The notes under the pieces were generated by a model. The model searched no databases, was not told the origin of the DNA, and saw only the letters and a program-made list of their open reading frames with translations. A DNA stretch of 38,084 bases. It comes from a virus. Every line of letters starts with the position of its first letter. The first letter of the stretch is position 1. A program made the translations under genes and the position numbers. Below, one piece after another: positions 502-38,084 of this stretch. The DNA lies in IMG/VR virus record IMGVR_UViG_3300048913_000099; one strand, 5' to 3'.

Positions 502-516
502 TTGCCTGGAGCACCC

Positions 517-2983: not shown

Positions 2984-2988
2984 CGATC

Positions 2989-3429
2989 ATGCCCAAGTAC
3001 GCCACCGATTACACCGCAGCAGCTACCGTTTCTGGAGCCGACCTGTGTCAGATCGTCCAGGGCGGCGTCGACAAGAAAGCGACGTTGGCCCAGATCGCGG
3101 CGCTGGCGACCACGGGAAGCGGCGTCACGATCACCACGAAGACCGCCAGTGCAACGCTGGCGCTGGCTGATGGCGACTGGATCGAGATGGACGTGGCAAC
3201 CGCCAACACCCTCACTGTGCCGCCAAACTCGACCGTGGCGTTCCCGATAGGCGCTGTGCGCAACATCAACCAGCGCGGGGCAGGGCAGACGACGGTGGTA
3301 GCGGGTGCAGGCGTGACGATCCGCACCGACGAGACGCTGAAGCTGCGAAAGCAGTGGGCGACCGCGGTTCTGGTCAAGCGCGCCACCGACGAGTGGGTTC
3401 TAGCCGGCAGCCTGGAGGCTGCGCCGTGA
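2989..3429 (+). CDS. Hypothetical virion/tail protein (146 aa)
   Basis: It is tightly packed after the previous gene, has high GC3 and Ala/Thr/Val-rich beta-type composition. Confidence 0.6.
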   Translation: MPKYATDYTAAATVSGADLCQIVQGGVDKKATLAQIAALATTGSGVTITTKTASATLALADGDWIEMDVATANTLTVPPNSTVAFPIGAVRNINQRGAGQTTVVAGAGVTIRTDETLKLRKQWATAVLVKRATDEWVLAGSLEAAP

Positions 3430-6092: not shown

Positions 6093-6167
6093 GGCTTCCC
6101 CTCGTTTTCCCCGGCTGGATTGTGCCACGGTCGCAACCCCTGAGACGGTCGGGCGTATCCTGCGGCC

Positions 6168-6350
6168 ATGGACACCCCTGACAAGCCCGAACCGCCAGAC
6201 CGCCCGGACCCCACCAAGCTGAGGCCGGACCACAGCCACCTGCTGGTGCGCGACACCCGGACCCCGGAGGAGCAGCAGGCCGCCTCGCTGAAAGAGTCGG
6301 CGAGGCGCAAGGGTAGGGGGCGGTCGAAGTGGTGGGAGAAGGGGAGCTAG
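6168..6350 (+). CDS. Hypothetical charged, Pro-rich 60-aa protein (uncertain)
   Basis: GC3 is about 90% in this frame and clearly lower in the overlapping minus frames. There is no visible SD and no recognised motif. Confidence 0.3.
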   Translation: MDTPDKPEPPDRPDPTKLRPDHSHLLVRDTRTPEEQQAASLKESARRKGRGRSKWWEKGS

Positions 6351-6383
6351 CAAGTTGCTGTAAAAGCGGCTGACCCTTTACAG

Positions 6384-7542: not shown

Positions 7543-7730
7543 GCCTGCAACCTGCATTTGGCCCACCAGACGGACAGGTCTGCGGGGTGGATTCGATCTG
7601 ACTTCGCGCCCTGACCAAGGCGGCAGGCAGCAAGGCTACCCGCATCAATGGCCCGGCGGAGGGTCTTGGTGGAACAGGCGCACCTTTCAGCCGCCTGCGC
7701 CAGGGTCATTAGCTGCTCAGCCGCCGACAT
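7368..7730 (-). CDS. xis: Excisionase-family DNA-binding protein (120 aa; the C-terminal tail overlaps int)
   Basis: GAGGAGG lies upstream of the ATG at 7730. LMTLAQAAERCACSTKTLRRAIDAGSLAACRLGQGAKSDRIHPADLSVWW matches the excisionase/MerR-like HTH pattern. No stop occurs until 7368, so the ORF overlaps int by about 175-200 nt. Confidence 0.65.
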   Translation of the reverse strand: MSAAEQLMTLAQAAERCACSTKTLRRAIDAGSLAACRLGQGAKSDRIHPADLSVWWAKCRLQACQSPSAPTEAIKLQLDTAEERIERRLAAGHTLRPKPSKRSGSRRSTQLRLVVNPSDQ

Positions 7731-7938: not shown

Positions 7939-8096
7939 AGAATCACCGCCTTCACCCAAAGTCCGATGAGCGGCGGAGACATCCAGAAACCTACCCATAC
8001 CGCAGCCGCCCACGTCAGTCGCTTGCTGTTCGCGGAGATGGCCCAAGAGACAAGCCCCAGACCGCCGAACAGAGCCACCATGAAGCATGTAAACAT
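7935..8096 (-). CDS. Small two-TM membrane protein (53 aa)
   Basis: MFTCFMVALFGGLGLVSWAISANSKRLTWAAAVWVGFWMSPPLIGLWVKAVIL. The ATG lies 14 nt after the stop of the Lar-like gene. The 75-aa version in the track would overlap the Lar-like gene. Confidence 0.45.
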   Translation of the reverse strand: MFTCFMVALFGGLGLVSWAISANSKRLTWAAAVWVGFWMSPPLIGLWVKAVIL

Positions 8097-8110
8097 CGCA
8101 TCAGCCTGGT

Positions 8111-8500
8111 TCACGGCGTCACCTCCGGGCGAGCAGCGAGCATGGCGGGCCATTCGACGCATGGGTTGATGTTGGCAGGCGATTTCACCCGCTCCCGAAT
8201 GCCCGCCTCTTTCATTTCCTCAGTCGGCACCACCGGCACCAGCACGTAGCCCTCGGGCGGAGTGAGGGCGGCGCGGGTGTTCCATGCCTGCACGGTGTCC
8301 GGCTCATACCCCGGGCAACTGGATATCCCCTCGCACTCGCATTCGGTGCAGTGCACCTTCTGCCATTCAACGATGGCGTGGCTCCACAGATCCTCATCCT
8401 GCCAACTCCTGATGGCTGCATCACCACCACAGAACGGGCATGCCAACAACTCCCGCGCCCTCTTCTCGATGTCGCTCACTGGTCTGCCCCCATATCCCAA
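8111..8500 (-). CDS. Lar-family (restriction-alleviation-type) zinc-ribbon protein
   Basis: CPFCGG...HCTECECEG...AWNTRA is the Lar-family signature (CPFCG plus a second Cys pair plus AWNxRA). GTG at 8479 is an alternative start. Confidence 0.65.
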   Translation of the reverse strand: MGYGGRPVSDIEKRARELLACPFCGGDAAIRSWQDEDLWSHAIVEWQKVHCTECECEGISSCPGYEPDTVQAWNTRAALTPPEGYVLVPVVPTEEMKEAGIRERVKSPANINPCVEWPAMLAARPEVTP

Positions 8501-8622
8501 AGAAGGTGCATGAATCCGGCCTTGTGGGGCGGAAGGCCGGACATTTCATTGAGTAGGGCGATGAATCCTGCGGTGAAGGGACCGCAACCCATGCGGCGGA
8601 AGAATCGATAGCGACGCTTCAT
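8476..8622 (-). CDS. Hypothetical 48-aa protein (uncertain)
   Basis: Hand-translated as MKRRYRFFRRMGCGPFTAGFIALLNEMSGLPPHKAGFMHLLWDMGADQ. It has a TGATG overlap with the upstream stop and fills the 8500-8622 gap. Confidence 0.3.
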   Translation of the reverse strand: MKRRYRFFRRMGCGPFTAGFIALLNEMSGLPPHKAGFMHLLWDMGADQ

Positions 8623-8876
8623 CACTCACTCTCCTTCGGCGGCGGGGGTAGGGGGAGCCAGTGGGTTGGCTGCCACGGTTCGGTTGTTTCAATAAATGCG
8701 CGCCAATGCGATTCCTCCGCGAATGTCTCCGCCTCCACGTACTCGAAGGAGCCTCCTTCCCGCCAATCAGTCGTCCACCGTGCTACTGCAGGAATCCATC
8801 CCTTAACTGATGCAAGAATCCAAGTCCCATCCCTCGGCGCGCTATCAATCGGCATCCACTCGGCGTGGCTGGTCAT
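8622..8876 (-). CDS. DUF551-like phage protein (84 aa)
   Basis: WMPIDSAPRDGTWILA...PTHWLPLPPPP matches the DUF551 pattern (W.pi...P.....vl ... THWmPlP.pP). Confidence 0.7.
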   Translation of the reverse strand: MTSHAEWMPIDSAPRDGTWILASVKGWIPAVARWTTDWREGGSFEYVEAETFAEESHWRAFIETTEPWQPTHWLPLPPPPKESE

Positions 8877-23657: not shown

Positions 23658-24056
23658 ATGGCACGTCCGACCGACTACAAGCCTGAATACTGCGAGCTGG
23701 TGATTGAGCTGGGCAAGCAGGGAAAGTCAGTCATCCAGATGGCCTGTGCCATCGACGTTGTGCGCCAAACGATGCATGACTGGTGCAAGGTCCACCCTGA
23801 GTTTCTGGATGCCTTTACGCGAGCCAAGCAGCTGAGCCAGGACTGGTGGGAGACTCAGGCCCAATGCGGGCTGACCGCCGACAAGTTCAACGCGCAGCTT
23901 TGGTCCCGGTCGATGGCCGCCCGCTTCCCTGACGACTATCAGGAGCGAAAGGGCGTCGAGTTGAGTGGGCCGGGCGGCGCGGACATCAAGACGACCACCC
24001 GCATTGAGTTGGTGGCGGCCACTGGGCATGTGTCGGATGACGACCGTCCAGATTGA
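23658..24056 (+). CDS. terS: Terminase small subunit
   Basis: MARPTDYKPEYCELVIELGKQGKSVIQMACAIDVVRQTMHDWCKVHPEFLDAFTRAK is the typical terS N-terminal HTH pattern. It lies directly upstream of terL. Confidence 0.8.
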   Translation: MARPTDYKPEYCELVIELGKQGKSVIQMACAIDVVRQTMHDWCKVHPEFLDAFTRAKQLSQDWWETQAQCGLTADKFNAQLWSRSMAARFPDDYQERKGVELSGPGGADIKTTTRIELVAATGHVSDDDRPD

Positions 24057-25335
24057 GCTACCGCCGAAGCTGATCCCGGTTTTCACGGGAGAGGCTGATT
24101 ACCGCGGAGCTTATGGTGGTCGTGGTTCAGCAAAGACCCGAAGCTTCGCATTGATGGTGGCTGTTCGAGCGCACATGTGGGCCCAAGAGGGCCGGTCTGG
24201 CGTGGTGGTAGGCGGCCGAGAGTTCATGAACTCGCTGGCTGACTCATCCATGGCCGAGATCAAAGGGGCGATCCTTTCGCAGCCTTGGCTGGCGCCTCAC
24301 TTCGATATCGGCGAGGAATACATCCGCACTGTGGACCGAAGGGTTGAGTTCGCCTTCATCGGCCTGCGCCGGAACCTGGACAGCATCAAGTCCAAGGCCC
24401 GCATCCTGCTGCTCTGGGTCGATGAGGCCGAGAACGTCAGCGAGACAGCCTGGGAGAAGGCCATCCCCACGGTGCGTGAGGAAGGCTCTGAGATTTGGGT
24501 GACGTGGAATCCCGAGCGGAAGGCCAGCGCCACCCACAAGCGATTCCGCGAGTCGGCTCCGGCAGGCAGCAAGATCGTTGAGCTCAACTGGCGTGACAAC
24601 CCGTTCTTCCCTGACTCCCTCAACCGCAAGCGGCTGGAGGACGAGGAGAAGCGCCCGGACAGCTATGAGCACATCTGGGAAGGCGGTTTCAAGACGGCGA
24701 TCAGCGGTGCGTACTACGCCAAGGCCTTGGCAGACGCCAAGCGGGCAGGACGCATCGGTGATCTGAGCATCGACCCGCTGATGACTGTGCGGGCCTATTG
24801 GGATATCGGCGGGACCGGCGCCAAGGCTGACGCCTGCGCTATCTGGATCGTGCAGTTCGTCGGCCAGGTAGTGCGGGTGTTGGACTACTACGAGGCAATC
24901 GGCCAAGAGCTGGCCGTTCACGTGAACTGGCTGAGGTCCTCGGGATACGAGCGTGCCCAGTGCGTTCTACCGCATGACGGCGCCAACCACGACAAGGTGT
25001 TCAAGGTCAGCTACGAGTCGGCCCTGAAGGCTGCTGGGTTCGACGTGCGGGTGATCCCGAATATGGGCGCAGGCGCTGCGATGAACCGCATCGAGGCCGC
25101 CCGTCGGTTGTTCCCGGCCATCTGGTTCAACGAGAAGCCCACCGAGCCTGGGCGCGATGCGCTGGGCTGGTATCACGAGAAGCGCGACGACCAACGGAAC
25201 ATTGGCTTCGGCCCGAACCACGACTGGGCCAGCCATGCCGCGGACGCCTTCGGGCTGATGGCGGTGGACCACGTTTCAGACAAGCACACGCCGGGTAAGC
25301 CGGTCCGCCTCAACTTCGCATCGGAATTCGCCTAA
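24037..25335 (+). CDS. terL: Terminase large subunit (about 432 aa)
   Basis: The Walker A region is YGGRGSAKTRSFA and the Walker B-like region is LLLWVDEAE. The start overlaps the terS end; ATG at 24028 is also possible. Confidence 0.9.
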   Translation: MTTVQIELPPKLIPVFTGEADYRGAYGGRGSAKTRSFALMVAVRAHMWAQEGRSGVVVGGREFMNSLADSSMAEIKGAILSQPWLAPHFDIGEEYIRTVDRRVEFAFIGLRRNLDSIKSKARILLLWVDEAENVSETAWEKAIPTVREEGSEIWVTWNPERKASATHKRFRESAPAGSKIVELNWRDNPFFPDSLNRKRLEDEEKRPDSYEHIWEGGFKTAISGAYYAKALADAKRAGRIGDLSIDPLMTVRAYWDIGGTGAKADACAIWIVQFVGQVVRVLDYYEAIGQELAVHVNWLRSSGYERAQCVLPHDGANHDKVFKVSYESALKAAGFDVRVIPNMGAGAAMNRIEAARRLFPAIWFNEKPTEPGRDALGWYHEKRDDQRNIGFGPNHDWASHAADAFGLMAVDHVSDKHTPGKPVRLNFASEFA

Positions 25336-27365
25336 TGGCTGAGTACAAGAACACGCCAGACGATCCGAACTACGCGACTGAGCGTTCGGGCGTGGACAAG
25401 GAAAAGCTCCACCAGGAGATGCTGGCTCGCCACCAGACGGCGCGCGATTACTGGCGGGTCGAGTACCAGAAGGCCGAGTGCGACATGGAGTTCGCCTTCC
25501 TCCCCGAGTCGCAGTGGGATGACTGGATGGCCACCACCCGTAAGGGTCGGCCGATGTACACGGTCAACAAGCTGCGCCAGGCCATGAAGCAGATTACCAA
25601 CGATCAGCGGCAGAACCGGCCTCAGGCCAAGGTTCGCGCGGTCGAGGACAGCGATGCAGACCTGGCTGAGATTCGTCAAGGCCTGATCCGCAACATTGAC
25701 CAGACCAGCGAAGCCGACCGAGCGCGCGATACCGCGTTCCAGTTCGCAGTCGGTGGGGGCTTCGGCGTGTGGCGCGTGAACTACGGCTACGAGGACGACG
25801 GCGGGTTCGACATGGTGATCAAGAAGGAGGAGATCGCCAATCCGTACTCGGTCGTATTCGATCCTGCAGCCAAGGCCAAGGACCGCCGCGATGCGCGCTA
25901 TGCCTTCGTGGACAGCAGCTGGGCGCGATCAGCGTTCCGCGCCCAGTGGCCGGAAGCCAAGTTGGTATCGGTCAGCGATTGTGATGAGTCGATGCGGGGC
26001 TGGTTCCAAGAAGAGGAGATCACCGTCTCCGAGTATTGGTACAAGACCAAAGAGACCTACACCCTCGTGCTGATGTCGGATGGCGCCTCTTATGACGAGG
26101 CCGAGATCGCCGACGTCATTGACGAAATGGCTGCTGCCGGTGTCACGATCCAGCGCCGCCGCAGGGCAGAGCGCGAGAAGGTATGGCAGTGCGTCGTGTC
26201 GGGGGCTGAAATCCTCGATGGTCCGAACGAGTGGGCGGGTCGTTTCATCCCGCTCATCCCGGTCTGGGGCGAAATCCTGGACTTGAAGGGTAAAGAGATG
26301 TTCTTCGGCGCGGTCCGCTTCGGCAAGGACGCCCAGCGGATGTACAACTACGAGCGGTCAACCTTCATCGAGGTGCTGGCCGACCAGCCCTACAGCCCGT
26401 TCATGGCCCCAGCAGAATCTATCGCCGGGTACGAGGCGCAGTGGAATGGCCTCAAGACCAATCGACCGCCTGTCCTGCTGTACAAGGCCGATCCTTCGCT
26501 GCCGAACTCAGGTAAGCCCTCCCGCGAGCCAACCGCGCAGTTCCCCGCGGCGCTTGCTCAGGCAGCTGCGATCTCCAGCGACGACATCAAGGCCGCAACC
26601 GGCATCTATGACGCCAGCCTTGGCCAGCGGTCCAACGAAACCAGCGGCCGGGCCATCCTGGCTCGCCAGCGAGAGGGCGATGTAGCCAACTTCGATTACA
26701 TCGACAACCTGTCGTACGCGATGAAGTACGACTTTGAGGTCACCAACGACCTGATCTCGAAGATTTACGACACCGAGCGTCAGATTCGCATCATTGGCGA
26801 GGATGGAGCCGAGAAGGTCATCCGAGTCAACCAGGTCATCCTCGATCAGCAGACGGGCCAAGAGGTCACGCTGAACGATCTCTCCCGCGGCCGCTTCGAT
26901 ATCGCTGTGACAGTGGGGCCGAGCTACACCACGCAGCGGATGGAGGCGGCCGAGGCAATGATGCAGCTGGCCAACGATCCATCTCCCATCGGCATGGTGG
27001 CCAAGTACGGCTTCATCAAGTCTCTGGACGCGCCCGGCCTGGAAGAGGTCCGCAAGGCAGCTCGCAAGATTCTTGTACAGGGCGGCCTGCTGGAGCCGGA
27101 AGAGGGCGAACAGCCTCCGCAGCAGCAGCCGGACCCGGCGCAGATCGCGCAGGCGGAGAAGAACTCTGCGGATGCTGAAAAGGCAAAGGCTCAGTCGGTC
27201 AGCTACATGGCATCCGCTCAGAAGGATTCGGCCCAGGCCGACTCGATACAGCTGGACAACCTGACCAAGGAGCAGCAGCTCCGAATACAGCAGATGACCG
27301 AAACATTCCTGACCGAGAACATCGGCAGACAAGGGGCCCCACTGGGGCCCTTTTCTTTTCAGTGA
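25335..27365 (+). CDS. Portal protein (P22-like, 676 aa)
   Basis: Its size and its position after terL fit a portal. The N-terminal motif is ..SQWDDWMATTRKGRPMYTVNKLRQAMKQITNDQRQNRPQAKVRAV.. and the C-terminus is a Q/E-rich helical barrel. Confidence 0.85.
   Translation: MAEYKNTPDDPNYATERSGVDKEKLHQEMLARHQTARDYWRVEYQKAECDMEFAFLPESQWDDWMATTRKGRPMYTVNKLRQAMKQITNDQRQNRPQAKVRAVEDSDADLAEIRQGLIRNIDQTSEADRARDTAFQFAVGGGFGVWRVNYGYEDDGGFDMVIKKEEIANPYSVVFDPAAKAKDRRDARYAFVDSSWARSAFRAQWPEAKLVSVSDCDESMRGWFQEEEITVSEYWYKTKETYTLVLMSDGASYDEAEIADVIDEMAAAGVTIQRRRRAEREKVWQCVVSGAEILDGPNEWAGRFIPLIPVWGEILDLKGKEMFFGAVRFGKDAQRMYNYERSTFIEVLADQPYSPFMAPAESIAGYEAQWNGLKTNRPPVLLYKADPSLPNSGKPSREPTAQFPAALAQAAAISSDDIKAATGIYDASLGQRSNETSGRAILARQREGDVANFDYIDNLSYAMKYDFEVTNDLISKIYDTERQIRIIGEDGAEKVIRVNQVILDQQTGQEVTLNDLSRGRFDIAVTVGPSYTTQRMEAAEAMMQLANDPSPIGMVAKYGFIKSLDAPGLEEVRKAARKILVQGGLLEPEEGEQPPQQQPDPAQIAQAEKNSADAEKAKAQSVSYMASAQKDSAQADSIQLDNLTKEQQLRIQQMTETFLTENIGRQGAPLGPFSFQ
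27334..27359 (+). terminator. Intrinsic-terminator-like hairpin embedded in the last codons of the portal gene
   Basis: GGGCCCC-ACT-GGGGCCC forms a 7-bp all-GC stem (27334-27350), followed by TTTTCTTTT. The stop codon is at 27363-27365. Confidence 0.5.
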
Positions 27366-28311: not shown

Positions 28312-29502
28312 GTGGCAAATCAGTTCCTCAATACCCAGAAGATCACTCGCGAGATCCTGTCGGTCCTGCGCCAGAAGCTCACCTTCCTGCGCAAGATCAA
28401 CATGGAGTACAAGAGCGAGTTCGCCGTCACCGGTGCCAAGATCGGTGACACCGTCAACATCCGCGTTCCCACCCACGCCAAAATCCGCACCGGCCGCATC
28501 ATGGATGCGTCGAACATGGTCGATAAGACCGTGCCGCTGACCATCTCGGACCAGACCGGCGTCGATCTGGTGTGGAACTCGTCGGACATGGCCCTGAAGA
28601 TCGATGACTTCAGCGCCCGATACCTCGACCAGCCCATCGCTGATCTGGCCTCGCGCATCGAGCAGATGGTCCTGCAGCGTGCTCTTCCGTACGCGGCCAA
28701 CTTCGTGCCCAACGCTGACGGCAAGCTGGACTTCGTTGAAGCCCTGCGCGCCAACAAGGTCCTGACCGACAACCTGGCCCCGACGCGCCGTTTCATGGTC
28801 ACCAACACCAGCGGTACGGTGCAGGTGGTCGATCAGCTGAAGGGCTTCTTCAACGCCCAGGATCGACTGGCCGAGCAGTACGAAGATGGCCTGATGGCCC
28901 GCGCGGCTGGCTTCGACTGGTTCGAAACCACCAACATGCCCGCTCAGTCCTACGGCACCTCCGCGATCCCGGGTGCGTACCTGATCAACGGTGCCAACCA
29001 GACCGGCAGCTCCATCGCTGTGGATGGCGGCACGGGCACCCTGGTGGCAGGCCAGCACGTCACCTTCGCAGGTGTCTTCGCGGTCAACCCGGCTACCAAG
29101 GTGTCCACGGGCGTCCTGCAGACCTTCGTTGTCACTGCCAACTACGCAGGCGGCAACGGCAATATCCAGGTCGCCCCGGCCATCGTCACCAGCGGTCCGG
29201 AGCAGAACGTCACCACTTCGCCGGCCGACAACGCGGTGATCGTGGTCCTGGGTGCCACCGGCCAGACGGGCGTCAACCTGGGCTTCGCGCGCGACTTCCT
29301 CACCTTCGCCACGGTCGATCTGCCGTTGCCGGAGAACAAGGAAGCCAGCCGGATGCAGTTCGATGGGCTGTCCCTGCGCATGATCCGCGACTACGACACC
29401 GTCAACGATCAGTTCCTGAACCGCGTGGACATCCTGTGGGGTTCGGCGGTCCTGCGCCCCGAGTTCGGCGTGGTCATCCCGAACGATCCCACCAACTTCT
29501 AA
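28312..29502 (+). CDS. Major capsid protein (P22 coat-like, 396 aa, GTG start)
   Basis: AAGGAG lies upstream. MANQFLNTQKITREILSVLRQKLTFLRKINMEYKSEFAVTGAKIGDTVNIRVP matches the pattern of P22-coat-family proteins in high-GC phages. Its position fits. Confidence 0.85.
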   Translation: MANQFLNTQKITREILSVLRQKLTFLRKINMEYKSEFAVTGAKIGDTVNIRVPTHAKIRTGRIMDASNMVDKTVPLTISDQTGVDLVWNSSDMALKIDDFSARYLDQPIADLASRIEQMVLQRALPYAANFVPNADGKLDFVEALRANKVLTDNLAPTRRFMVTNTSGTVQVVDQLKGFFNAQDRLAEQYEDGLMARAAGFDWFETTNMPAQSYGTSAIPGAYLINGANQTGSSIAVDGGTGTLVAGQHVTFAGVFAVNPATKVSTGVLQTFVVTANYAGGNGNIQVAPAIVTSGPEQNVTTSPADNAVIVVLGATGQTGVNLGFARDFLTFATVDLPLPENKEASRMQFDGLSLRMIRDYDTVNDQFLNRVDILWGSAVLRPEFGVVIPNDPTNF

Positions 29503-29514
29503 GGAGAACGATTC

Positions 29515-29718
29515 ATGGCACTTCCGTCCGATACCGTCGCTGCGGCGGCTACCGAAACCCCGGATGGCACCTTGGTCGGCCGCAATGCCGACTCCAAGGT
29601 GGGCTTCTACGGCGCTACGCCGACTGCCCAGCCTGCCGCACTGAGTCTGGCGACGGTCACCGCCGCCCAGCTCGCAACCGCTCTGGCCGCCGTTGGCCTG
29701 ATCAAGACCACCGCCTGA
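29515..29718 (+). CDS. Small head-associated hypothetical protein (67 aa)
   Basis: AAGGAGA lies upstream. The gene is immediately after the coat gene and the protein is Ala/Thr-rich. Confidence 0.6.
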   Translation: MALPSDTVAAAATETPDGTLVGRNADSKVGFYGATPTAQPAALSLATVTAAQLATALAAVGLIKTTA

Positions 29719-29728
29719 GGAGGCTGAC

Positions 29729-30004
29729 ATGGCCGATTACAAGCACGCCAAGTACCTGCACAAGGACGGCGAGGTGAAGTTGTTCCCGGGCGACGAGGTC
29801 GAGGATGCGCTGGCCTCCGGCTGGGAGTATCCGAAATTCCCGCGCTCCAACGGCGAAGAGTGGAACCCGGAGGTTCCGGAGGATGAGGTCTCTGCCGCTG
29901 ATGCGGCGGCCGAAGTCCTGAAGGCCAACCGCGCTCGCCAGGAGAAGCTGGACGCCAAGGAAGCCAAGGCCGAGCAGGCCAAGGCCGAGAAGCCGAAGAA
30001 GTAA
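29729..30004 (+). CDS. Hypothetical protein (91 aa, acidic then K/A/E-rich tail)
   Basis: GAGGAGG lies upstream, and the gene is followed by a strong terminator. Confidence 0.6.
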   Translation: MADYKHAKYLHKDGEVKLFPGDEVEDALASGWEYPKFPRSNGEEWNPEVPEDEVSAADAAAEVLKANRARQEKLDAKEAKAEQAKAEKPKK

Positions 30005-30026: not shown

Positions 30027-30057
30027 AGGGGCGGCCTTCGGGTCGCCCCTTCTTTTT
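30027..30057 (+). terminator. Rho-independent terminator after the head gene block
   Basis: AGGGGCGGCC-TTCG-GGTCGCCCCT forms a 10-bp stem followed by TCTTTTT. Confidence 0.75.
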
Positions 30058-30068
30058 GAGGGAAGGGC

Positions 30069-30476
30069 ATGACAAAGGTCGCAGAAATCGTAGTCGGCGC
30101 CCTTGGGCTGCTACGCGTTGTCAGTGCCACCGAGGCTCCGGAGGCCGAAGACGCGAAGACGGCGATTGATTCCCTCAACCGCATGATGGCGCGCTGGGAG
30201 GCCAACGGTTACTCGGTCGGCTGGTCGCCTGTGGACAACCCTGACGATGACATGCCGACGCCGGTCGAGACCGACGAGGCGATCATGTACAACCTGGCTG
30301 TTCGTCTGCGCCCTTTCTACGGCGTGACGCTCGATCCAGACGTATTCAATGAAGCACGGCGGTTGAAGTCCGACGTGCTGGCTGACGTGTTCTCGTCCAG
30401 CCCGATGAGCATGGAGCCGGGTCTGCCCGGGTTCCGTTGCCGTTACAACATTCGCAGCGACGGGTACGACCGCTAA
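30069..30476 (+). CDS. P22 gp4-like head-to-tail adaptor (135 aa)
   Basis: IVVGALGLLRVVSATEAPEAEDAKTAIDSLNRMMARWEANG parallels my recollection of the P22 gp4 N-terminus (..ALRKLGV...DLEAMMAEW..). It lies upstream of the gp10 homologue. Confidence 0.65.
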   Translation: MTKVAEIVVGALGLLRVVSATEAPEAEDAKTAIDSLNRMMARWEANGYSVGWSPVDNPDDDMPTPVETDEAIMYNLAVRLRPFYGVTLDPDVFNEARRLKSDVLADVFSSSPMSMEPGLPGFRCRYNIRSDGYDR

Positions 30477-32872
30477 TGCGCGCCAGTCCTGTGGACCTGA
30501 TCGGCGGCTTCTACGCCGACGACACGCTGCCGTGGTCGTGCCAGGACACCGTGAACTGGCTGCCGGTGATGGCGGAGGTTGGCGGGACGCGCACGCCGAG
30601 CAAGCTGGCGACGCCGCCGGGCCTGAAGCCCTACCAGCGCGTGGGCACTGGCCCGATCCGCGGTATGCACGATCTTGAGGGCGCCCAGTTCGTTGTTTCC
30701 GGTCGGTATCTGTACCAGATCGGGAACAGCGGGGTGGCTATTCCGATTGGCGTGATCCCTGGCGTTGGCCGGGTGAGCATGACCCACAACCAGTTCAAAA
30801 CCGGCTATCAGCTGCTCGTGGAGAACGGGCAGGGCGGTGGCGGGTACATCTACGACTCCAACACCAAGGCGTTTTCCCGCATCACGGACGAGGGCTATCC
30901 GGGCTCTATCTCGTCCGACTATCTCGATTCCTACCTACTTGGCGTGGAGCCGCAGGGCCGGTACTGGTTCCACAGCAATCTGGCCGACGCCACCGACTAC
31001 AACACCCTGGACCGGTACGAATCCGAGGCATCCCCGGACAAGATCGTCGGCCTGGCCGTGAGCCAGCTCGAAGTGGTGGTGTTCAACCAGCGCACCATTG
31101 AATTCTTCTACAACGCTGGCGGGGCGACTGGCACGTTCCAGAACCGCCGACAGTCGATCACCCGCGGGTGCGCATCACGCCACACCATCGCAAAGCTGGA
31201 CAACACCTTGTTCTGGCTGGGCGACGACGGGATTGTGTATCGCCTAGAAGGCTACTCAGCCCGTCCGATCTCCACCGGCCCGATGCACCGCGCATTCGCT
31301 GGCAAGAACTGGAGCGAGGCGTTCGCCCAGGTCTGGGAAGATCGTGGCTTCAAGGTCTACTACCTGACCTTCCCGGACGGCATGACCTTCGGCTACGACG
31401 TGGTGTCCGGTCTCTGGACCCGCCGTGAGTCGTTCGGCCTGAACCGTTGGCGTCTGAGCCACATCGTCAGGTGGGGTGCCAAGTGGTATGGCGGCGACTA
31501 CCAGGACGGCCGGAACTGGGAGCTGGACTGGGACTACTTCCTTGAGGGGAGTGACCCAATGGTCAGCGAGCGGGTTTCGCCGGTCCTGAGCGACAACCAG
31601 AGCATGTTGCTGATTCCGAGCGCAGAGCTGATTTTCGACACTGGCCAAGGCCCGGAGACGATCCCCACCGAGTTCCCGCCGCAGCCGTCTTCGCCGACTC
31701 TGAGCGGTGATGCTCCGGATACGTTGCGCGGGATCGTCTACACCGACTTCACCTACACCATCGCTGGCGGGGAATCTCCCTATACGGTGGTCGTATCCAG
31801 TGGGAGCCTCCCTCCTGGCCTGTCTATCAGCAGCTCTGGCGTGATTTCTGGGACGGCTACTGCCTCGGGCATGTTCAAGTACACCTTGCGCGTGACTGAT
31901 GCAAAGGGGCTGTGGACCGAACTGGCAGATTCGATTGGCGTGTCAACGCAGGTCCTGGCGCTTGGCGCTACGGCAGGAAATACAAAGATTGTCACGCGTC
32001 GCAATCTGAGCGGCACCTGGTCGAACGTGAACGCCGGTACGGCCGCAGGCTCTACGAATCTCGAAGGTCTCGCCAGTGGCAGATTCATTGCATGGATCGC
32101 CGGAGCGGCCTTCTACAGCGACGACAGCGGATCAAATTGGACGCAATCGGCCAGCACAATCGACTCTTCCGGTGGGTCTAGGAACGGAGATTCGCTTGGG
32201 GCTGTAGTGGTACTCGGTGGTGGTCTCGGAGCGTTCTATGTAAGCACGAACAGCGGCACGACCTACGCCACCCGTACGGCTACCACTACCTTCTTGGGCA
32301 ACCCGCTCATCGTGAAGGCGGGGCCGAACACGGGAAGAATTCTTCTGGTCAATTCGCTGCCCACCTCCGCAAATTCCTACAGCGACGACCAAGGGGTGAC
32401 CTTCGGTTCTGTCCCTGCACATGGCGTGACGCGTTCCTCCGGTGGGTCCACTCATTCGTCTGGCGAGTACCAGTACATCGGCGGCAACGTTGCCGCTGGG
32501 GGTAAGCCCCGAGTGGCAGTGATGCAGGGCGGCTCAACCTTGCTTCGAACACTGACCCTTGCAGCGGCAACCAACGGCACGGTGAGCGCAATTCTGCGTT
32601 ACCCGATGGGTTCAGGTCAGCGCTTGCTGATGGGGACCTCTACGGGCGAGTTGTGGGCCTCGGATGACAACGCAGTGACGGCAATTCGCATCCCTCTTGC
32701 ATCCGGCGGGGCTATATCCGGCCTGGCCTTTGATGGCGCCCGCCTACTTCTGTCCTCCAGTAGCGGATCGATGCCAGTTCGGGTCAGTGCCGACAATGGA
32801 GTTACCTGGGTGACTGAGAGCAATCCCAGTACTGGCGGAATTACTTCGCTCGCAGGACTTCCCAATGGCTGA
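30476..32872 (+). CDS. P22 gp10-like tail hub (packaged-DNA stabilisation protein) with a C-terminal Ig-like plus BNR/Asp-box extension (798 aa)
   Basis: The N-terminal roughly 400 aa carry gp10-type motifs (GRVSMTHNQ, YESEASPDKIVGLAV, IEFFYNAGGATG). A He_PIG-type Ig motif (SGSLPPGLSISSSGVISGTATASG) follows. After that come SxDxGxxW-type repeats (YSDDSGSNWT, STNSGTTYA, SDDQGVTFG, SADNGVTWV). Confidence 0.75.
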   Translation: MRASPVDLIGGFYADDTLPWSCQDTVNWLPVMAEVGGTRTPSKLATPPGLKPYQRVGTGPIRGMHDLEGAQFVVSGRYLYQIGNSGVAIPIGVIPGVGRVSMTHNQFKTGYQLLVENGQGGGGYIYDSNTKAFSRITDEGYPGSISSDYLDSYLLGVEPQGRYWFHSNLADATDYNTLDRYESEASPDKIVGLAVSQLEVVVFNQRTIEFFYNAGGATGTFQNRRQSITRGCASRHTIAKLDNTLFWLGDDGIVYRLEGYSARPISTGPMHRAFAGKNWSEAFAQVWEDRGFKVYYLTFPDGMTFGYDVVSGLWTRRESFGLNRWRLSHIVRWGAKWYGGDYQDGRNWELDWDYFLEGSDPMVSERVSPVLSDNQSMLLIPSAELIFDTGQGPETIPTEFPPQPSSPTLSGDAPDTLRGIVYTDFTYTIAGGESPYTVVVSSGSLPPGLSISSSGVISGTATASGMFKYTLRVTDAKGLWTELADSIGVSTQVLALGATAGNTKIVTRRNLSGTWSNVNAGTAAGSTNLEGLASGRFIAWIAGAAFYSDDSGSNWTQSASTIDSSGGSRNGDSLGAVVVLGGGLGAFYVSTNSGTTYATRTATTTFLGNPLIVKAGPNTGRILLVNSLPTSANSYSDDQGVTFGSVPAHGVTRSSGGSTHSSGEYQYIGGNVAAGGKPRVAVMQGGSTLLRTLTLAAATNGTVSAILRYPMGSGQRLLMGTSTGELWASDDNAVTAIRIPLASGGAISGLAFDGARLLLSSSSGSMPVRVSADNGVTWVTESNPSTGGITSLAGLPNG

Positions 32873-33092
32873 TACCGATCATTTTGTTGACGTGTCCTAC
32901 AGCAAGGACGGTGGCCGCAACTGGAGCAACCGCAGGCGGTATTCGATAGGCAAAATTGGGCAGTACGATCAGAGGATCAGGCTTCTGCGTCTGGGCCGAG
33001 CTCGGCAGTGGGTGTTCCGGATCACAGTGTCCTCCGCACGAAAGCGCGATCTCCTTGGCGCCGTCGTGTCTGTCGAGGGAACGGACGACTGA
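32865..33092 (+). CDS. Separate 75-aa ORF equivalent to the conserved C-terminus of gp10-family proteins
   Basis: VSYSKDGGRNWSNRRRYSIGKIGQYDQRIRLLRLGRARQWVFRITVSS parallels the gp10 C-terminal segment as I recall it (..TTDGINYG...YDKRVLWKRVGRIRRLIGFKLRV..). It overlaps the upstream stop by 8 nt. Confidence 0.6.
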   Translation: MADTDHFVDVSYSKDGGRNWSNRRRYSIGKIGQYDQRIRLLRLGRARQWVFRITVSSARKRDLLGAVVSVEGTDD

Positions 33093-33637
33093 TGCTCATC
33101 ATTGACGGTGCAAACCTGGACGCGCAGGCGCTCCGGGCAGCGGGCCTGTGCGCGCCGTATGTGGATTGGCCCGGCTATGACGGAGAGGTCTACAAGCGCG
33201 TGTGTCTGACCGAGATCCCGGGCCTGCAGGATGCAATCGAGGCCCAGATGGGTCCGGTCGAGATGCTGGGCATGGGCTACCGGCTCAACTTCAACCGCGA
33301 GCTGCCCAATGCGGCGATCCACTCGGACATGGGCTGGGGCACGCACGCCGCGGTGCTGTATCTGAGCGAAGGGGAGGGTGGCACGGCCTTCTGGCGGCAC
33401 AAGGCTACCCGCGCAGCCCGCATCGATCCCGGCGACATGGCCCTGTTTGAACAGGTCCGCCACGACTGGGACGACGCCAGCAAGTGGGACCAGGTCGGCC
33501 TGGCTGAAATGAAGCTCGGTCGCCTGCTGATCTACGAATCCGCACTGTTCCACAGCCGCTGGCCGTTCGAGGCCTTCGGCACCGATTACGACTCTGGCCG
33601 CCTTGTCGCGGTCGCCTTCTTTACCCCGAGGGGCTGA
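33092..33637 (+). CDS. 2OG-Fe(II)-oxygenase-like (cupin/DSBH) protein, 181 aa
   Basis: The HxD (IHSD), GTHAAVLYLSEGEGGTAFWRH, the distal His (ALFHS) and a downstream Arg (GRLVAVAFF) fit the facial triad plus the 2OG-binding Arg. It has an ATGA overlap with the upstream gene. Confidence 0.55.
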   Translation: MLIIDGANLDAQALRAAGLCAPYVDWPGYDGEVYKRVCLTEIPGLQDAIEAQMGPVEMLGMGYRLNFNRELPNAAIHSDMGWGTHAAVLYLSEGEGGTAFWRHKATRAARIDPGDMALFEQVRHDWDDASKWDQVGLAEMKLGRLLIYESALFHSRWPFEAFGTDYDSGRLVAVAFFTPRG

Positions 33638-34086
33638 TGACCATCATCCGCAAAGGAACTCTGGCCGACGTGCCGGAGATCGTCCGCATGTCCGCAGCTT
33701 TCTACCCGACCACGCATTACGCCCAGTGGTGCGACATGGACGAGGAGACGGTGGCTGATCTGGCCTCCGGCCTGATCGAGAGCCACATCTTCTACGTGGC
33801 TGAGGACGGCGGACGACTGGTCGGCATGGTCGGCCTCTTCATCATCCCCTTCATGTTCAACCGGCACGCCACGTCCGCTGGCGAGGTCGTGTGGTGGGTT
33901 GACCCCGAGGCCCGCGGCTCTCGCGTTGCCGTCTCGCTGCTTCAGGCAGTTGAGGGCGCTTGCCGCGATGCAGGTGCCGACCGAATCCAGATGGTCCACA
34001 TGCCCAACAGCCCTCCGCAGGCCGCAGCCCTCTACGAAAAGTTGGGCTACTCCCGATCCGAAATCAGCTATACCAAGGACATCTGA
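33637..34086 (+). CDS. GNAT-family N-acetyltransferase (149 aa)
   Basis: The motif A region is VVWWVDPEARGSRVAVSLLQAVEGACRDAG, and the C-terminus is LYEKLGYS. The start overlaps the upstream stop. Confidence 0.7.
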   Translation: MTIIRKGTLADVPEIVRMSAAFYPTTHYAQWCDMDEETVADLASGLIESHIFYVAEDGGRLVGMVGLFIIPFMFNRHATSAGEVVWWVDPEARGSRVAVSLLQAVEGACRDAGADRIQMVHMPNSPPQAAALYEKLGYSRSEISYTKDI

Positions 34087-34088: not shown

Positions 34089-34808
34089 ATGGCCGCAATC
34101 ACCGCAGCAGCAGTCGTTGCCGCAGGCAGCGCATACGCCGCCAACCGCCAGGGCGCGGCCCAGAAGAAGGCTGGCCGGGCGCAGGCCAGTGCAGCTCAGC
34201 AGACGCTTGACCAGCAACAGGCGCTGTACAACAACGCCGTGGAGGGCGCGCAGCCCTACGCGCAGGCTGGCACCAACGCGCTCGGCCAGCTGGAGGCGGT
34301 CAATCGCGGCGACTACTCAGGTTTCGAGAACGCCCCTGATTACCTGTTCGCGCGAGATCAGGGCATCCAGGGCCTTGACCGTGGCGCAGCAGCTCGGGGC
34401 GGCTTGTACTCGGGCGGCGCTGACGCCGACCGGATGGCCTTCGCCTCGGGCTTGGCAAGCCAGAACCTCGGCCAGTACACCAACCGCCTGATGGGCCTGA
34501 CGCAGCTCGGCTCGAACACCCAGCAGTACCTCGGGCAGTTGGGCCAGAACTACGGCAACCAGTTCGCCAACGCTATGGGCATCAAGGGGCAGGCGAACGG
34601 CATGGTGGCGAGCGCTGGCGCAGCAGCGCAGGCGGGCTATGGCAACGCGCTGGCATCCGGTGCTGGTGCATACCTGGGGGCAGGCGGCGGTGGGGGTGGC
34701 GGGAACGCTCTCGGCAGTCTGCAGGGATTCGGCAACAACATGGACGGCCTGATGGGCCAAGCCGGCGCTGGCCGCCGATCCAGTTTCGACTTCAAGGGGT
34801 GGGTCTAA
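34089..34808 (+). CDS. Ejection/internal virion protein (gp7 position, 239 aa)
   Basis: It has a hydrophobic Ala-rich N-terminus, low-complexity Gly/Gln/Ala-rich sequence and a GGGGGGG tract. It lies in the ejection-protein block. Confidence 0.6.
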   Translation: MAAITAAAVVAAGSAYAANRQGAAQKKAGRAQASAAQQTLDQQQALYNNAVEGAQPYAQAGTNALGQLEAVNRGDYSGFENAPDYLFARDQGIQGLDRGAAARGGLYSGGADADRMAFASGLASQNLGQYTNRLMGLTQLGSNTQQYLGQLGQNYGNQFANAMGIKGQANGMVASAGAAAQAGYGNALASGAGAYLGAGGGGGGGNALGSLQGFGNNMDGLMGQAGAGRRSSFDFKGWV

Positions 34809-34811: not shown

Positions 34812-36263
34812 ATGGCTGATTTCCAGCAGAACTTCATGAACAGCTTGGCTGGCGGATTCCAGTTCGGCCAGCAGGTGCGCGGTGTGCAGGACCGCAACAA
34901 GATCAACCAGCTTGCGTCGATTGCATATCAGGCTCCGGCCGATCAGCGCCAGGAGATTCTGGGTCAGGCCGCCGCGGTGGACGCAGGCCAGGCCTTTGCG
35001 TTGGATCGGCAGCTCGGCAACAATGACGAGCGTCGCAACACGACCATGATCAACATGGCCAAGCTGCTGACCTCAGCACCGGAGCAGGCCCGGCCGGGGC
35101 TGTACCAGCAGTTCGTCCCGACCCTGTCCAAGTTCGGCCTGTCCGATCTCCCCACTGAGTACAACGCCCAGACCGCACCTGTAATCGATCAGGCCGCGCA
35201 GTCGCTGGTGCAGGCTTACAGCGGCGGGGCGGCGGGTTCGGGTGTCCAGTCCACCTATGTGGACAACAACGGGCAGCGTGTGGCCATCATGCGCGACGGC
35301 TCCACCCAAGTTCTTGGCGGAAACGACGTTGGCGCCAACCAGCAGTCTCTGACAATCGATGTCAACGGCACCCCGACGCAGGTTACTTTTGACCGCCGCA
35401 CCGGCCGGTACACGAATGCCGCTCTTGGAGCCCCGGCCCAGCAAGCCCCGCAGCAGCCGCAGGGCGGCTACCAGCAGATCAACGGCCAGCAGACCTACAT
35501 CGATCCGAACCTCCCGCCGCAGGTGCAGCAGCAGATTCGCCAGTCGCTGGCCTCGGGTCAGGAACCTCCGGCACAGATGGCGTTCGCCGGTCAGCCCCTG
35601 GTGGGGCGGCGCGCTGAGGATCAGGCTGCAGCGGTAGAGGCGGCCAAGCTGGCGGCCCAGCAGCAGTTCCTTCCTCAAGAACTGGGTATGCGCACGCAGG
35701 CAGCGATTCAGCAGGCGGGCGGCACCGCGCAGGCGAAGGGGGAGGCAGAGGCCAGGCTTGATGCAGTCCAGAACCTGCCGCGCGTGATGCAGGAGTCCAC
35801 CAATGCGATCCGCCTGATCGACTCGGCGCTCAACCATCCAGGGCTGGCTACGGCGGTGGGTGCATCTGGCCGAATCGACCCGCGTAACTACGTGCCGGGC
35901 ACTGACGCAACCGATTTCCGGGTTTTGCTCGACCAGATCAAGGGTGGCACCTTCCTGCAGGCGTTCCAGAGCTTGAAGGGCGGCGGTGCCATCACCGAGG
36001 TGGAAGGAACCAAGGCGGAGCAGGCAATCGCTCGTCTCAACCGAGACCAAAGCGAGCAGGCATTCCGCCAGTCGCTGCAGGATCTCCGTGAAGTTGCCCA
36101 GTCGGCCATTGCCCGTGCTCAGTCCAAGGCTCAGGCAGCAGGGGGTGGCACCGCAGTGCCGGGGGGCGCAGCACGCCGAATCCAGTCCGCCGAGGACTAC
36201 AACGCGCTCCCGAGCGGTGCGCTGTTCATCGCTCCTGATGGCACCCAGCGGAGGAAGCGCTGA
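34812..36263 (+). CDS. Ejection/internal virion protein (gp20 position, 483 aa)
   Basis: It is a Q/A/G-rich protein in the ejection block, tightly packed with its neighbours. Confidence 0.6.
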   Translation: MADFQQNFMNSLAGGFQFGQQVRGVQDRNKINQLASIAYQAPADQRQEILGQAAAVDAGQAFALDRQLGNNDERRNTTMINMAKLLTSAPEQARPGLYQQFVPTLSKFGLSDLPTEYNAQTAPVIDQAAQSLVQAYSGGAAGSGVQSTYVDNNGQRVAIMRDGSTQVLGGNDVGANQQSLTIDVNGTPTQVTFDRRTGRYTNAALGAPAQQAPQQPQGGYQQINGQQTYIDPNLPPQVQQQIRQSLASGQEPPAQMAFAGQPLVGRRAEDQAAAVEAAKLAAQQQFLPQELGMRTQAAIQQAGGTAQAKGEAEARLDAVQNLPRVMQESTNAIRLIDSALNHPGLATAVGASGRIDPRNYVPGTDATDFRVLLDQIKGGTFLQAFQSLKGGGAITEVEGTKAEQAIARLNRDQSEQAFRQSLQDLREVAQSAIARAQSKAQAAGGGTAVPGGAARRIQSAEDYNALPSGALFIAPDGTQRRKR

Positions 36264-38084
36264 TGGCCAATCCTTGGGATGAGGACGAAATTGTAGCCGC
36301 TGCCCCAGCGACTCAGCCCGTCCCGTCGATGGTCGCGCCTGCTGCCCCTGAGCAGGGATCGAGCGCACCTTGGGACCAGGACCCTATCGTTGATGAAGGC
36401 GGCCAGGAGCCGCTTGAGATCGATATCGTTGGCGGCGTTCGCGAGAGTGACCGAGCGGTGCAGCAGGCCGCCGCGAATCCGACCGATTCTATGAGCGGCC
36501 TTGATCGTTTCAGTGCCGGCGTGGGGAAGTCCCTAGTCGACACGTATCAGGGCCTGAAGCAGTCAGCGGTTGAGGGCCAGCCCACCGGGTGGGCGGCGAT
36601 CAACTCTGGTGTCCTCGGGCTGCTGCAGGGCCGGGGATTCACCGAGAGCGCCCTTGGCGGGTTGTCGGAGCTGGGCCAAGCGCGCCAGCAGATGCGACAG
36701 GAGACTGCCGACCGGCGAGAGCTTGACCGACCGCTGCTGGATACCGGTGCAGGCATGTCCGGCAACGTTCTTGGCACGATCGCTCAGCTTCTCGGGCCGG
36801 GCCTCGCCGCACGTGGGACAGCAGCGGCCCCGGCGCTGCTTCCCACCACCATCCGAGGCAATGCGCTGCAGGGTGCCGTCATCGGTTCAATCCAACCAGC
36901 CGCCAGCACCGAAGAGCGCGGAGTGAATGCACTCGTCGGCCTGGCCGGTGGCGGCGGTGGTGCAGGTTTGGCAAAGCTGGGGGGCGCGACCTACAACGCA
37001 CTGGCTGGCCTTGGCCGCGGCGGACTCTCGACCGCTGATCGTGGCGCCGCGCAGGTCCTGATGCGCGAGGCTTCAGACCCCGCTGCACTGCAGAGGGTTG
37101 CCCCGTCTCAGGTTGACGGCGTACAGCGCACACTTGCCGAGGAAACGCTTGATCCGGGGATCGCGCGCCTCGAACGAACCTCGCGCAGCACCGGCGGGCA
37201 GTTCGACGCGATCGACCGAGCCAACAATGCTGCGCGCGTCCGCGCTCTGGAGACGTTCGCTCAAGACGAAACCGCGCTGGCGGCCGCAACTCGCGCGCGA
37301 AACCAGGACACCAAGGCGCTGCGAGAGCAGGCCATGCAGGACCGAGGCGTTGATGTGGCCGCGGTCCGCAGCGTTCTGGATCGTCAGTTGGAATCCACTG
37401 CGACCCGTCCCTCGGTCCAGTCAGCCCTTCTGGATGTTCAGCGCTCTCTGGATGAGGCGGGCGACGATGTGTTCAGCCTCTACGGCACGCGCAAGTACAT
37501 CGATGACCTCCTGAGCGGGAAGGCGGGCAGCGACAAGTCGTATGCCAAGGCTGCTACGAAGGAGCTGATGCAGATCAAAGGCGCGCTGGACTCCAAGCTC
37601 GCAGATGCCTCCCCCAGCTTCTCGCAGTACCTGGAGAAGTACCGTGAGATGTCCGGCCCGATCAACCGTATGCAGGTCGGCCAAGCGCTGACCGGGCGAG
37701 GCTCCGGCGGTGCGGTTATGGACCCGGTGACGGGCGTGCAGGTCCTGACGCCGGCGCAGTTCAGCAAGGCGTCGCGCTCTCTGGACGACGTTGCTGCCAA
37801 GGCCACAGGCTTCAAGAAGGCCAAGGCTGCGGATATCCTTCGCCCCGGCGATATCGCGATCATTAAGTCGATTCAGGACGATCTCGAGCGGCAGGCATTC
37901 CGAGCCACGGCCGGCAGCGGCGGCAACTCCCAGACCTTCGAGCGTCTTGGCGTGCAAGACCGAATCGCCAAGGGTGCAGGACGTGAAGCAATGGGGCTGA
38001 TGCCCGGTGGCCGCTATGTTGGCGACCTGCTCGACATCCTGGACAAGAGCAAGAACGACCAGTTGAAGGAGCGACTGGCCTACC
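36263..38084 (+). CDS. Ejection/internal virion protein (gp16 position), 5' part; runs off the window and ends at 258 after the circular wrap
   Basis: The ATG at 36263 overlaps the upstream stop (TGATG). My hand translation is open to the window end and in phase with ORF 34..258. Confidence 0.75.
   Translation, partial: MANPWDEDEIVAAAPATQPVPSMVAPAAPEQGSSAPWDQDPIVDEGGQEPLEIDIVGGVRESDRAVQQAAANPTDSMSGLDRFSAGVGKSLVDTYQGLKQSAVEGQPTGWAAINSGVLGLLQGRGFTESALGGLSELGQARQQMRQETADRRELDRPLLDTGAGMSGNVLGTIAQLLGPGLAARGTAAAPALLPTTIRGNALQGAVIGSIQPAASTEERGVNALVGLAGGGGGAGLAKLGGATYNALAGLGRGGLSTADRGAAQVLMREASDPAALQRVAPSQVDGVQRTLAEETLDPGIARLERTSRSTGGQFDAIDRANNAARVRALETFAQDETALAAATRARNQDTKALREQAMQDRGVDVAAVRSVLDRQLESTATRPSVQSALLDVQRSLDEAGDDVFSLYGTRKYIDDLLSGKAGSDKSYAKAATKELMQIKGALDSKLADASPSFSQYLEKYREMSGPINRMQVGQALTGRGSGGAVMDPVTGVQVLTPAQFSKASRSLDDVAAKATGFKKAKAADILRPGDIAIIKSIQDDLERQAFRATAGSGGNSQTFERLGVQDRIAKGAGREAMGLMPGGRYVGDLLDILDKSKNDQLKERLAY
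37958..38084 (+). repeat. 127-nt exact repeat of window positions 1-127 (circular-assembly overlap or terminal redundancy)
   Basis: A direct comparison of both ends shows that they are identical. Confidence 0.9.

Follow-up and report, generated by a model that had tools for sequence, protein, structure and literature searches.

The 38,084-nucleotide viral contig IMGVR_UViG_3300048913_000099 from IMG/VR (the window, by which we mean the whole stretch of DNA analysed) carries two adjoining genes, ORF1 and ORF2 (ORF, open reading frame), directly before the genes for its DNA ejection proteins. An initial annotation, made from the sequence alone, had described them as a 2-oxoglutarate (2OG)-Fe(II)-oxygenase-like gene at 33092..33637 and a GNAT acetyltransferase gene at 33637..34086, lying in a P22-like gene order where P22 has genes 26 and 14. 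Both frames lie at these coordinates on the plus strand and encode 181 (ORF1) and 149 (ORF2) amino acids (aa). P22 itself does have genes 26 and 14 at the corresponding position, and the P22-like order was recovered by matches to P22_CoatProtein, P22_Tail-4 (gp4), Phage_stabilise/phrog_578 (gp10), phrog_598 (gp7-type) and phrog_2534 (gp20-type). The gene directly upstream of ORF1 is a 75-aa ORF (32865..33092, plus strand), which encodes the C-terminal end of the tail hub protein gp10 as a separate polypeptide (phrog_578, 409-471; phrog_19101, 525-593). Downstream of ORF2 follows the gene for the gp7-type ejection protein (34089..34808, plus strand; phrog_598 DNA ejection, 5e-33).

Operon structure

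ORF1 and ORF2 are translationally coupled genes of the late virion operon, as the initial annotation had proposed on the basis of their overlapping starts. The stop codon of the 75-aa ORF (TGA, 33090-33092) overlaps the ATG of ORF1 (33092-33094) in a TGATG junction, and a second TGATG joins the stop of ORF1 (TGA, 33635-33637) to the ATG of ORF2 (33637-33639). The stop of ORF2 (34084-34086) and the gp7-like ATG at 34089 do not overlap and are separated by a spacer of 2 nucleotides. A sequence scan between gp4 and the ejection genes revealed neither promoter-like sites nor a strong terminator; the sole terminator-like match, at 33595 inside ORF1, is weak, and such sites were fewer than in shuffled sequence.

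This organisation bears on the question whether the two genes could be lysogenic-conversion or accessory 'moron' genes that have no link to the virion and modify, for example, the host envelope from the prophage. The phage is temperate and carries a conversion-type O-antigen acetylase (5064..6353) adjoining its integrase, as would suit such genes. Against this, ORF1 and ORF2 have no promoter or terminator of their own, both starts are coupled by TGATG, about 90 loci keep the genes at one fixed place in the structural operon, and the cofactors of both enzymes are cytoplasmic, and a moron function is very unlikely. The initial annotation had named three possible roles, namely modification of virion or ejection proteins, modification of a host envelope component at infection, and packaging and injection as effectors. 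Envelope modification is the least compatible of the three, because acetyl-CoA and 2OG are cytoplasmic and no export signal was recognised in ORF1 or ORF2 on reading their sequences.

ORF1, a predicted Fe(II)/2-oxoglutarate-dependent oxygenase

The motifs that had led to the assignment of ORF1 are all present, i.e. IHSD (residues 76-79), GGTAFWRH (96-103), ALFHS (151-155) and GRLVAVAFF (169-177). The Pfam family DUF6445 (PF20043) matches ORF1 with 38.3 bits (cut-off 24; 1.8e-9) and is carried by all listed close homologues, and 2OG-FeII_Oxy_5 matches weakly. A sequence search of solved structures with ORF1 gave no match. The AlphaFold (AF2) model, built on 23 homologues, has a pLDDT of 94.4 and a pTM of 0.89 and is a compact, globular double-stranded beta-helix (DSBH) with eight core strands, three short helices only and no coiled coil. 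In a Foldseek search of the PDB the top 50 matches were all PhyH-like Fe/2OG oxygenases (probability 1.0; TMq, the TM-score normalised to the query, 0.37-0.60), among them FtmOx1, ColD, EvdMO1, AviO1, GriE, EctD, SyrB2 and proline hydroxylases.

The ORF1 family is large. An exhaustive profile search of clusters at 50% identity retrieved 1401 clusters at E<=1e-3, of which 428 reach E<=1e-10. H77, D79 and H154 are invariant among 23 close relatives of ORF1, and H77, D79, H154 and R170 are kept in 146-148 of the 150 best representatives, the remainder having gaps only; R170 is found in all 147 representatives that have a residue at this place. In an alignment of 41 sequences with 30% mean identity no column besides these four is invariant. 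The model places H154 on its seventh core strand and R170 at the first position of the eighth and last strand (170-179). Based on these canonical positions we propose that H77-x-D79...H154 forms the facial triad and that R170 is the 2OG-binding arginine. The model, the PDB matches and the invariant residues all support the initially postulated DSBH fold, the HxD...H triad and the conserved arginine. Since the predicted metal and 2OG ligands are the sole invariant columns, the conservation pattern indicates a working enzyme and not a structural beta-sandwich.

The PHROG of ORF1, phrog_1644, is labelled "minor coat protein", which is the RefSeq label of the homologue from cyanophage S-SSM7; the original GenBank record says hypothetical, and the label is a mislabel that carries no evidence. 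Scans with NCBIfam and PADLOC revealed no specific family and no defence link, apart from one weak 2OG match. Among 50,697 records of cultured phages there was no close homologue (best 26-29% identity), and the window holds no collagen-like Gly-X-Y repeats, a possible hydroxylase substrate.

ORF2 and P22 gene 14

ORF2 contains the GNAT motif block VVWWVDPEARGSRVAVSLLQAVEGACRDAG noted initially, and its assignment as a GNAT acyl-CoA N-acyltransferase was confirmed by Acetyltransf_1 (56.3 bits against a cut-off of 20.7; 4.8e-15), by four further GNAT models above their cut-offs (Acetyltransf_7, _9, _10 and _3) and by phrog_1249 (6e-28). The profile of the ORF2 family matches 52 solved GNATs (E<=0.01), with no preference for any substrate class. 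Among the GNATs that partner ORF1-like oxygenases, E83 is conserved in 95 of 97 and Y133 in 84 of 97; these two residues are the candidate catalytic acid and base of ORF2.

The gene 14 of P22, known since about 1980, was compared with ORF2 in some detail. Its product (151 aa; L004, 8911-9366) is encoded between the needle gene 26 and gene 7, which starts at 9369; it matches DUF2824 only, a family that we take to belong to the Pfam acetyltransferase clan. The annotations of gp14 range from head assembly or head morphogenesis factor to 'virion stability factor', the last being the GenBank label of gene 14. A sequence search of solved structures with gp14 gave nothing meaningful. In the model of a protein 96% identical to P22 gp14 (P0121; pLDDT 88.9) strands and helices follow each other as in GNATs, and the model matches SpeG, PseH and other GNATs with TM-scores of 0.65-0.80 (E about 1e-8); the top 50 matches are all GNATs, and 400 matches were obtained at E<=1e-3. 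P22 gp14 is thus predicted from its model to have a GNAT fold, for which we found no statement in the literature searched. At the level of sequence, ORF2 has no Pfam match to DUF2824 and BLASTP of ORF2 against gp14 gave an E-value of 3.9; the sole local alignment between the profiles of the two families covers the motif A region, with PE-x-RG in both.

The initial view that a GNAT gene stands here instead of gene 14 was not borne out, given that gp14 itself has a predicted GNAT fold, a similar size and the same place before gene 7. ORF2 corresponds to gene 14 by its position, size and fold, the fold being predicted from a profile for ORF2 and from a model for gp14. In the cyanophage Pan3 the order is gp10, an annotated needle, a GNAT 32% identical to ORF2, and the ejection proteins. 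Since gp14 is predicted to be a GNAT and the Pan3 GNAT stands behind a needle, the oxygenase alone is the extra element compared to the P22 layout.

The structural matches of gp14 and ORF1 also raise the alternative that the pair modifies a small molecule or counter-ion, for instance a polyamine or an amino-acid derivative, which would serve DNA packaging or virion stability, with no protein target. The best matches of the gp14 model are spermidine/spermine N-acetyltransferases (SpeG, TM-score up to 0.80), the GenBank label of gene 14 refers to virion stability, and the nearest solved structures of ORF1 (EctD, GriE, proline hydroxylase, FtmOx1) hydroxylate small molecules or free amino acids. 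Pairs of a GNAT and an Fe/2OG oxygenase occur in small-molecule pathways, such as EctA/EctD in the synthesis of hydroxyectoine. However, the PDB contains a large excess of SpeG structures and other GNATs score nearly equal, the ORF2 profile has no preference for polyamine acetyltransferases, and a small-molecule substrate would leave the close tracking of the ejection-protein genes, described below, unexplained. We consider this alternative unlikely.

Conservation of the pair and its link to the ejection-protein genes

A search with ORF1 as bait yielded 86 loci, of which 18 are genome loci and 68 are IMG/VR viral contigs. The GNAT gene stands immediately downstream of the oxygenase gene in all 18 genome loci, whose hosts include Stenotrophomonas, Pseudoxanthomonas, Luteimonas, Coralloluteibacterium, Cellvibrionaceae and Rhodanobacteraceae. 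Stenotrophomonas sp. BIGb0135 has the module on contig NZ_JANUDX010000003.1 (18336-38878), its two proteins being 86% and 83% identical. Comparative genomics had been proposed initially as a check on whether the pair is conserved as a unit, and this was found to be the case: of the 82 loci whose sequence extends far enough, 79 have the GNAT adjacent or fused. Among the three that lack it, L089 (1551..2015) and L090 (1506..1973) have an oxygenase match broken into two pieces, which suggests that the oxygenase decays once its partner is lost. The order is swapped, with the GNAT preceding the oxygenase, in the more distant members L096, L097 and L100. In 9 of 150 cluster representatives both domains are fused in a single chain, eight times as oxygenase-GNAT and once as GNAT-oxygenase; P0211 is one such natural fusion. 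The pair is also present in L095, a phage whose capsid belongs to another family (Phage_capsid_4). The fusions in both orders, the order swap and the persistence with a different capsid family argue for a functional coupling of oxygenase and GNAT on one substrate or pathway, beyond shared ancestry.

The usual gene order of the loci is gp4-gp10-ORF1-GNAT-gp7-gp20-gp16-fibre. Among the 86 loci, gp10 was found upstream in 62, abutting ORF1 in 50 of them, and a gp7-like gene was found downstream in 56; the loci for which gp10 or gp7 were not detected include four that are cut by the contig end and others without detectable homologue. Where no gp10 was detected upstream, for example in L007 and L011, which have other genes there, the pair still lies directly before the ejection genes; in L009 it lies directly behind them. 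In L095, L096 and L100, which are distant members or fusions, a Phage_stabilise (gp10) gene stands on the upstream side of the pair, and downstream come three large genes of unknown family, the latter being in an ejection-protein-like position and size range. On a 73-kb metagenomic contig (L099) a DUF6445 gene (8001..8651) is followed by genes for proteins of 347, 487 and at least 2864 aa, which could represent an ejection block with a giant internal protein. The giant protein, considered as an N4-type virion RNA polymerase, had no PHROG match, and no GNAT partner is evident in L099, the neighbouring genes having no Pfam match on record.

Genes embedded in the ejection-protein cluster of several phage architectures might also encode effectors that are packaged and injected. 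One or both enzymes would then be loaded together with the ejection proteins and modify a target in the next host, in the course of take-over or anti-defence, before phage genes are expressed. The cofactors are present in the cytoplasm of the recipient cell, and other phages do package enzymes, T4 Alt and the N4 virion RNA polymerase being examples. However, no capsid-targeting or ejection-protein-like region is recognisable in ORF1 or ORF2, there was no match to defence models except the weak 2OG match mentioned above, and P22 gp14 is presumably not a virion component. A role as injected effectors is in our view quite unlikely.

Needle slot and split tail hub

As stated in the initial annotation, no gp26-like needle gene is present at this position, and the same applies to the rest of the complete genome. 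Phmmer searches with the needles of P22 (gp26) and Pan3 as queries gave no match in any ORF of the window or of about 90 loci, and PHROG and Pfam scans of all remaining tail-region ORFs of the complete genome revealed no needle family. The N-terminus of the P22 needle plugs the channel and is required for DNA retention (PMC3741392). ORF1 was considered as a needle of the gp26 type, with a plug and a long trimeric coiled coil, and rejected, its model being globular and its sequence having no similarity to P22 gp26 or the Pan3 needle. Likewise, a fibre-like protein encoded at 1302..2240 was rejected as a relocated needle; its similarity to the genes that follow gp10 in L020 and L022 is not significant. 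This protein has a short coiled-coil-like stretch and is a candidate channel plug.

A structural role of ORF1 could be imagined independently of the gp26 type, namely as a tail plug that replaces the needle and is built on a beta-sandwich with no catalysis. ORF1 occupies exactly the gene 26 slot and abuts gp10 in 50 loci, and the genome lacks a needle homologue. The only residues that the family keeps invariant are, however, the predicted metal and 2OG ligands, the model is a compact DSBH without coiled coil, nine representatives are fused to a GNAT, and there is no similarity to either needle. In addition, other small genes separate gp10 from the pair in L020, L022, L095 and L096; an oxygenase can therefore coexist with a post-hub gene. 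We regard a non-catalytic plug as hardly credible.

The gp10 gene of the tail hub is split into an 811-aa ORF (30437..32872, plus strand) and the 75-aa ORF described above. The former holds approximately hub residues 1-413 (phrog_578 1-417, 2.3e-104), followed by an immunoglobulin-like domain (He_PIG, 2.9e-9) and an extension with Asp-box-like motifs, recognised on reading its sequence; the 75-aa ORF, in another frame (ATGGCTGA overlap), supplies the last ~65 hub residues. A split gp10 was found in the window and in 32 related loci, and an unsplit gp10 of ~465 aa in 30 others; comparison with the window showed that the unsplit gp10 of L010 and L016 has the C-terminal part in the same frame. 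The recurrence of the split in 32 loci, beside the unsplit form in 30, shows that it is a genuine feature of gene organisation and no sequencing error. Between loci the distal gp10 extension diverges, as expected of a receptor-binding domain.

Genome context

Both ends of the window (1..127 and 37958..38084) are an exact direct repeat of 127 bp. The window is therefore a circular assembly and represents the complete genome, of approximately 37,957 bp, of a temperate, P22-like podophage. The head genes comprise the terminase (23965..25335), the portal (25335..27365), a scaffold gene between the portal and coat genes, and the P22-type coat protein (28312..29502; Pfam P22_CoatProtein). The gp4-like head-to-tail adaptor (30069..30476, plus strand; P22_Tail-4, 3.8e-8) precedes gp10. 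Behind the gp7-type gene lie the gene for the gp20-type ejection protein (34812..36263, plus strand; phrog_2534, 1.6e-21) and, at the position of gp16, the gene for a third, large ejection protein on the plus strand. The frame of the latter is open to the end of the window and its C-terminal piece is found in 1..258; because the contig is circular, the gene crosses the junction (36263..38084, then 128..258). The tail fibre genes (394..5141) are followed on the minus strand by the gene for the O-antigen acetylase-like acyltransferase (5064..6353; phrog_6705, 9e-60), likely a lysogenic-conversion gene as in phage Sf6, and by the adjoining integrase gene (6613..7566).

Two small ORFs with no family match lie between the coat gene and gp4 (29515..29718, 67 aa; 29729..30004, 91 aa), and the 91-aa ORF has a Lys/Ala/Glu-rich tail. 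The P22 counterpart at this place is orf69. Behind these ORFs, directly before gp4, a strong GC-rich hairpin with a T run is found at 30027..30050, the sole strong hairpin of the scan; in P22 a stem-loop is annotated directly after the coat gene. The hairpin may cause the tail, enzyme and ejection genes to be expressed at a lower level than the coat gene.

Discussion

We propose that ORF1, as an Fe(II)/2-oxoglutarate oxygenase, and ORF2, as a GNAT acyl-CoA transferase, form a functionally coupled two-enzyme module. Both enzymes would be made late, in translational coupling with the tail-hub and ejection-protein genes, and would act in the cytoplasm of the infected cell, since they require Fe2+, 2OG, O2 and acyl-CoA and no export signal was recognised in their sequences. 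The GNAT would correspond to P22 gene 14, which encodes a morphogenesis factor of predicted GNAT fold directly upstream of the ejection genes, while the oxygenase would be a partner recruited in this lineage, mostly in the slot of the P22 needle gene. The two may act sequentially on one substrate during virion maturation, by oxidation or hydroxylation and by acylation. That ORF1 and ORF2 are a coupled pair of active enzymes is highly probable. A tie of their function to the maturation of ejection proteins or the virion falls a little short of an even chance, and an ejection protein or a co-packaged component, although the most likely substrate, can be named only tentatively. The reading as a whole, a coupled hydroxylase/acyltransferase module that is late, cytoplasmic and tied to ejection-protein or virion maturation, we judge to be evenly poised.

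Several observations weigh against this proposal. No experiment or sequence feature points to a particular substrate, and the closest solved structures of ORF1 act mostly on small molecules or free amino acids, not on proteins. The motif A loop of ORF2 in the window is RGSRVA, with an Arg in place of the Gly at the fourth position of the canonical [QR]xxGx[GA]; the canonical form is present in 47 of the 97 partner GNATs, e.g. as QGAGAG, and the subclade of the window is non-canonical. The equivalence of ORF2 and gene 14 is confined to fold, size and position and may reflect convergent placement of unrelated GNATs, all the more as hhalign gave a probability of 1.2% for the two families with profiles of 18 and 19 sequences and of 0.4-0.6% with profiles of 97 and ≈60 sequences in local and global mode. 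A search with the GNAT as bait yielded 26 new loci, 10 of which have a family member without oxygenase; in the two of these that were inspected (L119 and L123) the neighbours are tail-fibre genes. Many of the loci stem from related phages, and the adjacency counts are not counts of independent events. Finally, the distant DUF6445-like genes of the cultured phages S-SSM7, GP100 and Gundel_1 are found in other contexts, with no annotated acetyltransferase adjoining.

The ejection proteins of short-tailed phages are stored in the capsid, pass the tail unfolded and rebuild a channel across the envelope, and how they are prepared for this is poorly understood. To our knowledge, P22 gene 14 is still without a biochemical function. 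The predicted GNAT fold of gp14, the canonical GNAT at the same place in many phages and its pairing or fusion with an oxygenase lead to a testable enzyme hypothesis, which replaces the vague "head assembly factor" by an enzyme that acts on or near the ejection proteins. In a more specific form, the ejection proteins or a co-packaged component would be hydroxylated and acylated before they are loaded into the procapsid, and the pair would be a dedicated post-translational maturation system for podophage ejection proteins, with P22 gene 14 as its reduced, GNAT-only version. This specific form is doubtful; if true, it would be the first case in which the DNA-ejection apparatus of a phage is known to be modified by an enzymatic pathway and would give gene 14 a biochemical function.

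Both enzyme superfamilies are well known; new are the module, the fusions, the tie to the ejection genes and the relation to gene 14. We found no description of an oxygenase-GNAT module in the literature searched, nor any mention of DUF6445 in the searchable literature, and this Pfam family of ~1400 clusters gains a functional context. The result also reveals a set of P22-like phages without recognisable needle and with a split tail hub.

Among characterised enzymes, the PhyH-like oxygenases EctD, GriE, FtmOx1, AviO1/EvdMO1 and SyrB2 share with ORF1 the DSBH fold, the HxD...H triad and the C-terminal arginine. Their identity to ORF1 is 12-17% (TMq <=0.60), and with 220-410 aa compared to 181 aa they are larger, ORF1 representing a minimal core without substrate-binding lids. 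The 2OG-Fe(II) oxygenases of cyanophages and other marine phages (phrog_1644) belong to the same PHROG and Pfam family as ORF1, reach a TMq of up to 0.85 and are likewise uncharacterised. In contrast to ORF1 they are not adjoined by annotated acetyltransferase or ejection genes, and the identity is 25-29%. Giant viruses possess bifunctional hydroxylase-transferases, such as the collagen lysyl hydroxylase/glycosyltransferase of mimivirus. The best viral structural neighbour of ORF1 is a DSBH domain of Satyrvirus fused to a GT2 glycosyltransferase (TMq 0.80). The logic is similar to that of the ORF1 module in that an oxygenase is joined to a group-transferring enzyme, but the partner is a glycosyltransferase and not a GNAT; by analogy, this neighbour recalls the hydroxylase-plus-transferase logic of protein-modifying enzymes and is only a lead.

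On the side of the GNATs, the podophage members of phrog_1249 (Pan3_09, the proteins of the Pseudomonas phages Alpheus, Njord and uligo, and that of Lentibacter phage ICBM2) are 24-32% identical to ORF2 and lack an oxygenase partner. Two records, those of Pan3 and Alpheus, were inspected, and both have the gene within the virion-gene block or at its border. The GNAT of the T7-like phage Alpheus precedes the portal (head-tail adaptor) gene, whereas that of Pan3 stands exactly between the needle and the ejection proteins, a position before the ejection genes like that of ORF2. Compared to the window, P22 has no oxygenase partner and has a needle gene before gene 14, and gp14 is a member of DUF2824 only, with no significant sequence or profile similarity to ORF2 as a canonical Acetyltransf_1 member. 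Nevertheless, gp14 and ORF2 resemble each other in their length of 151 and 149 aa, in their predicted GNAT fold, and in their place after the tail-hub region and directly upstream of gp7-gp20-gp16.

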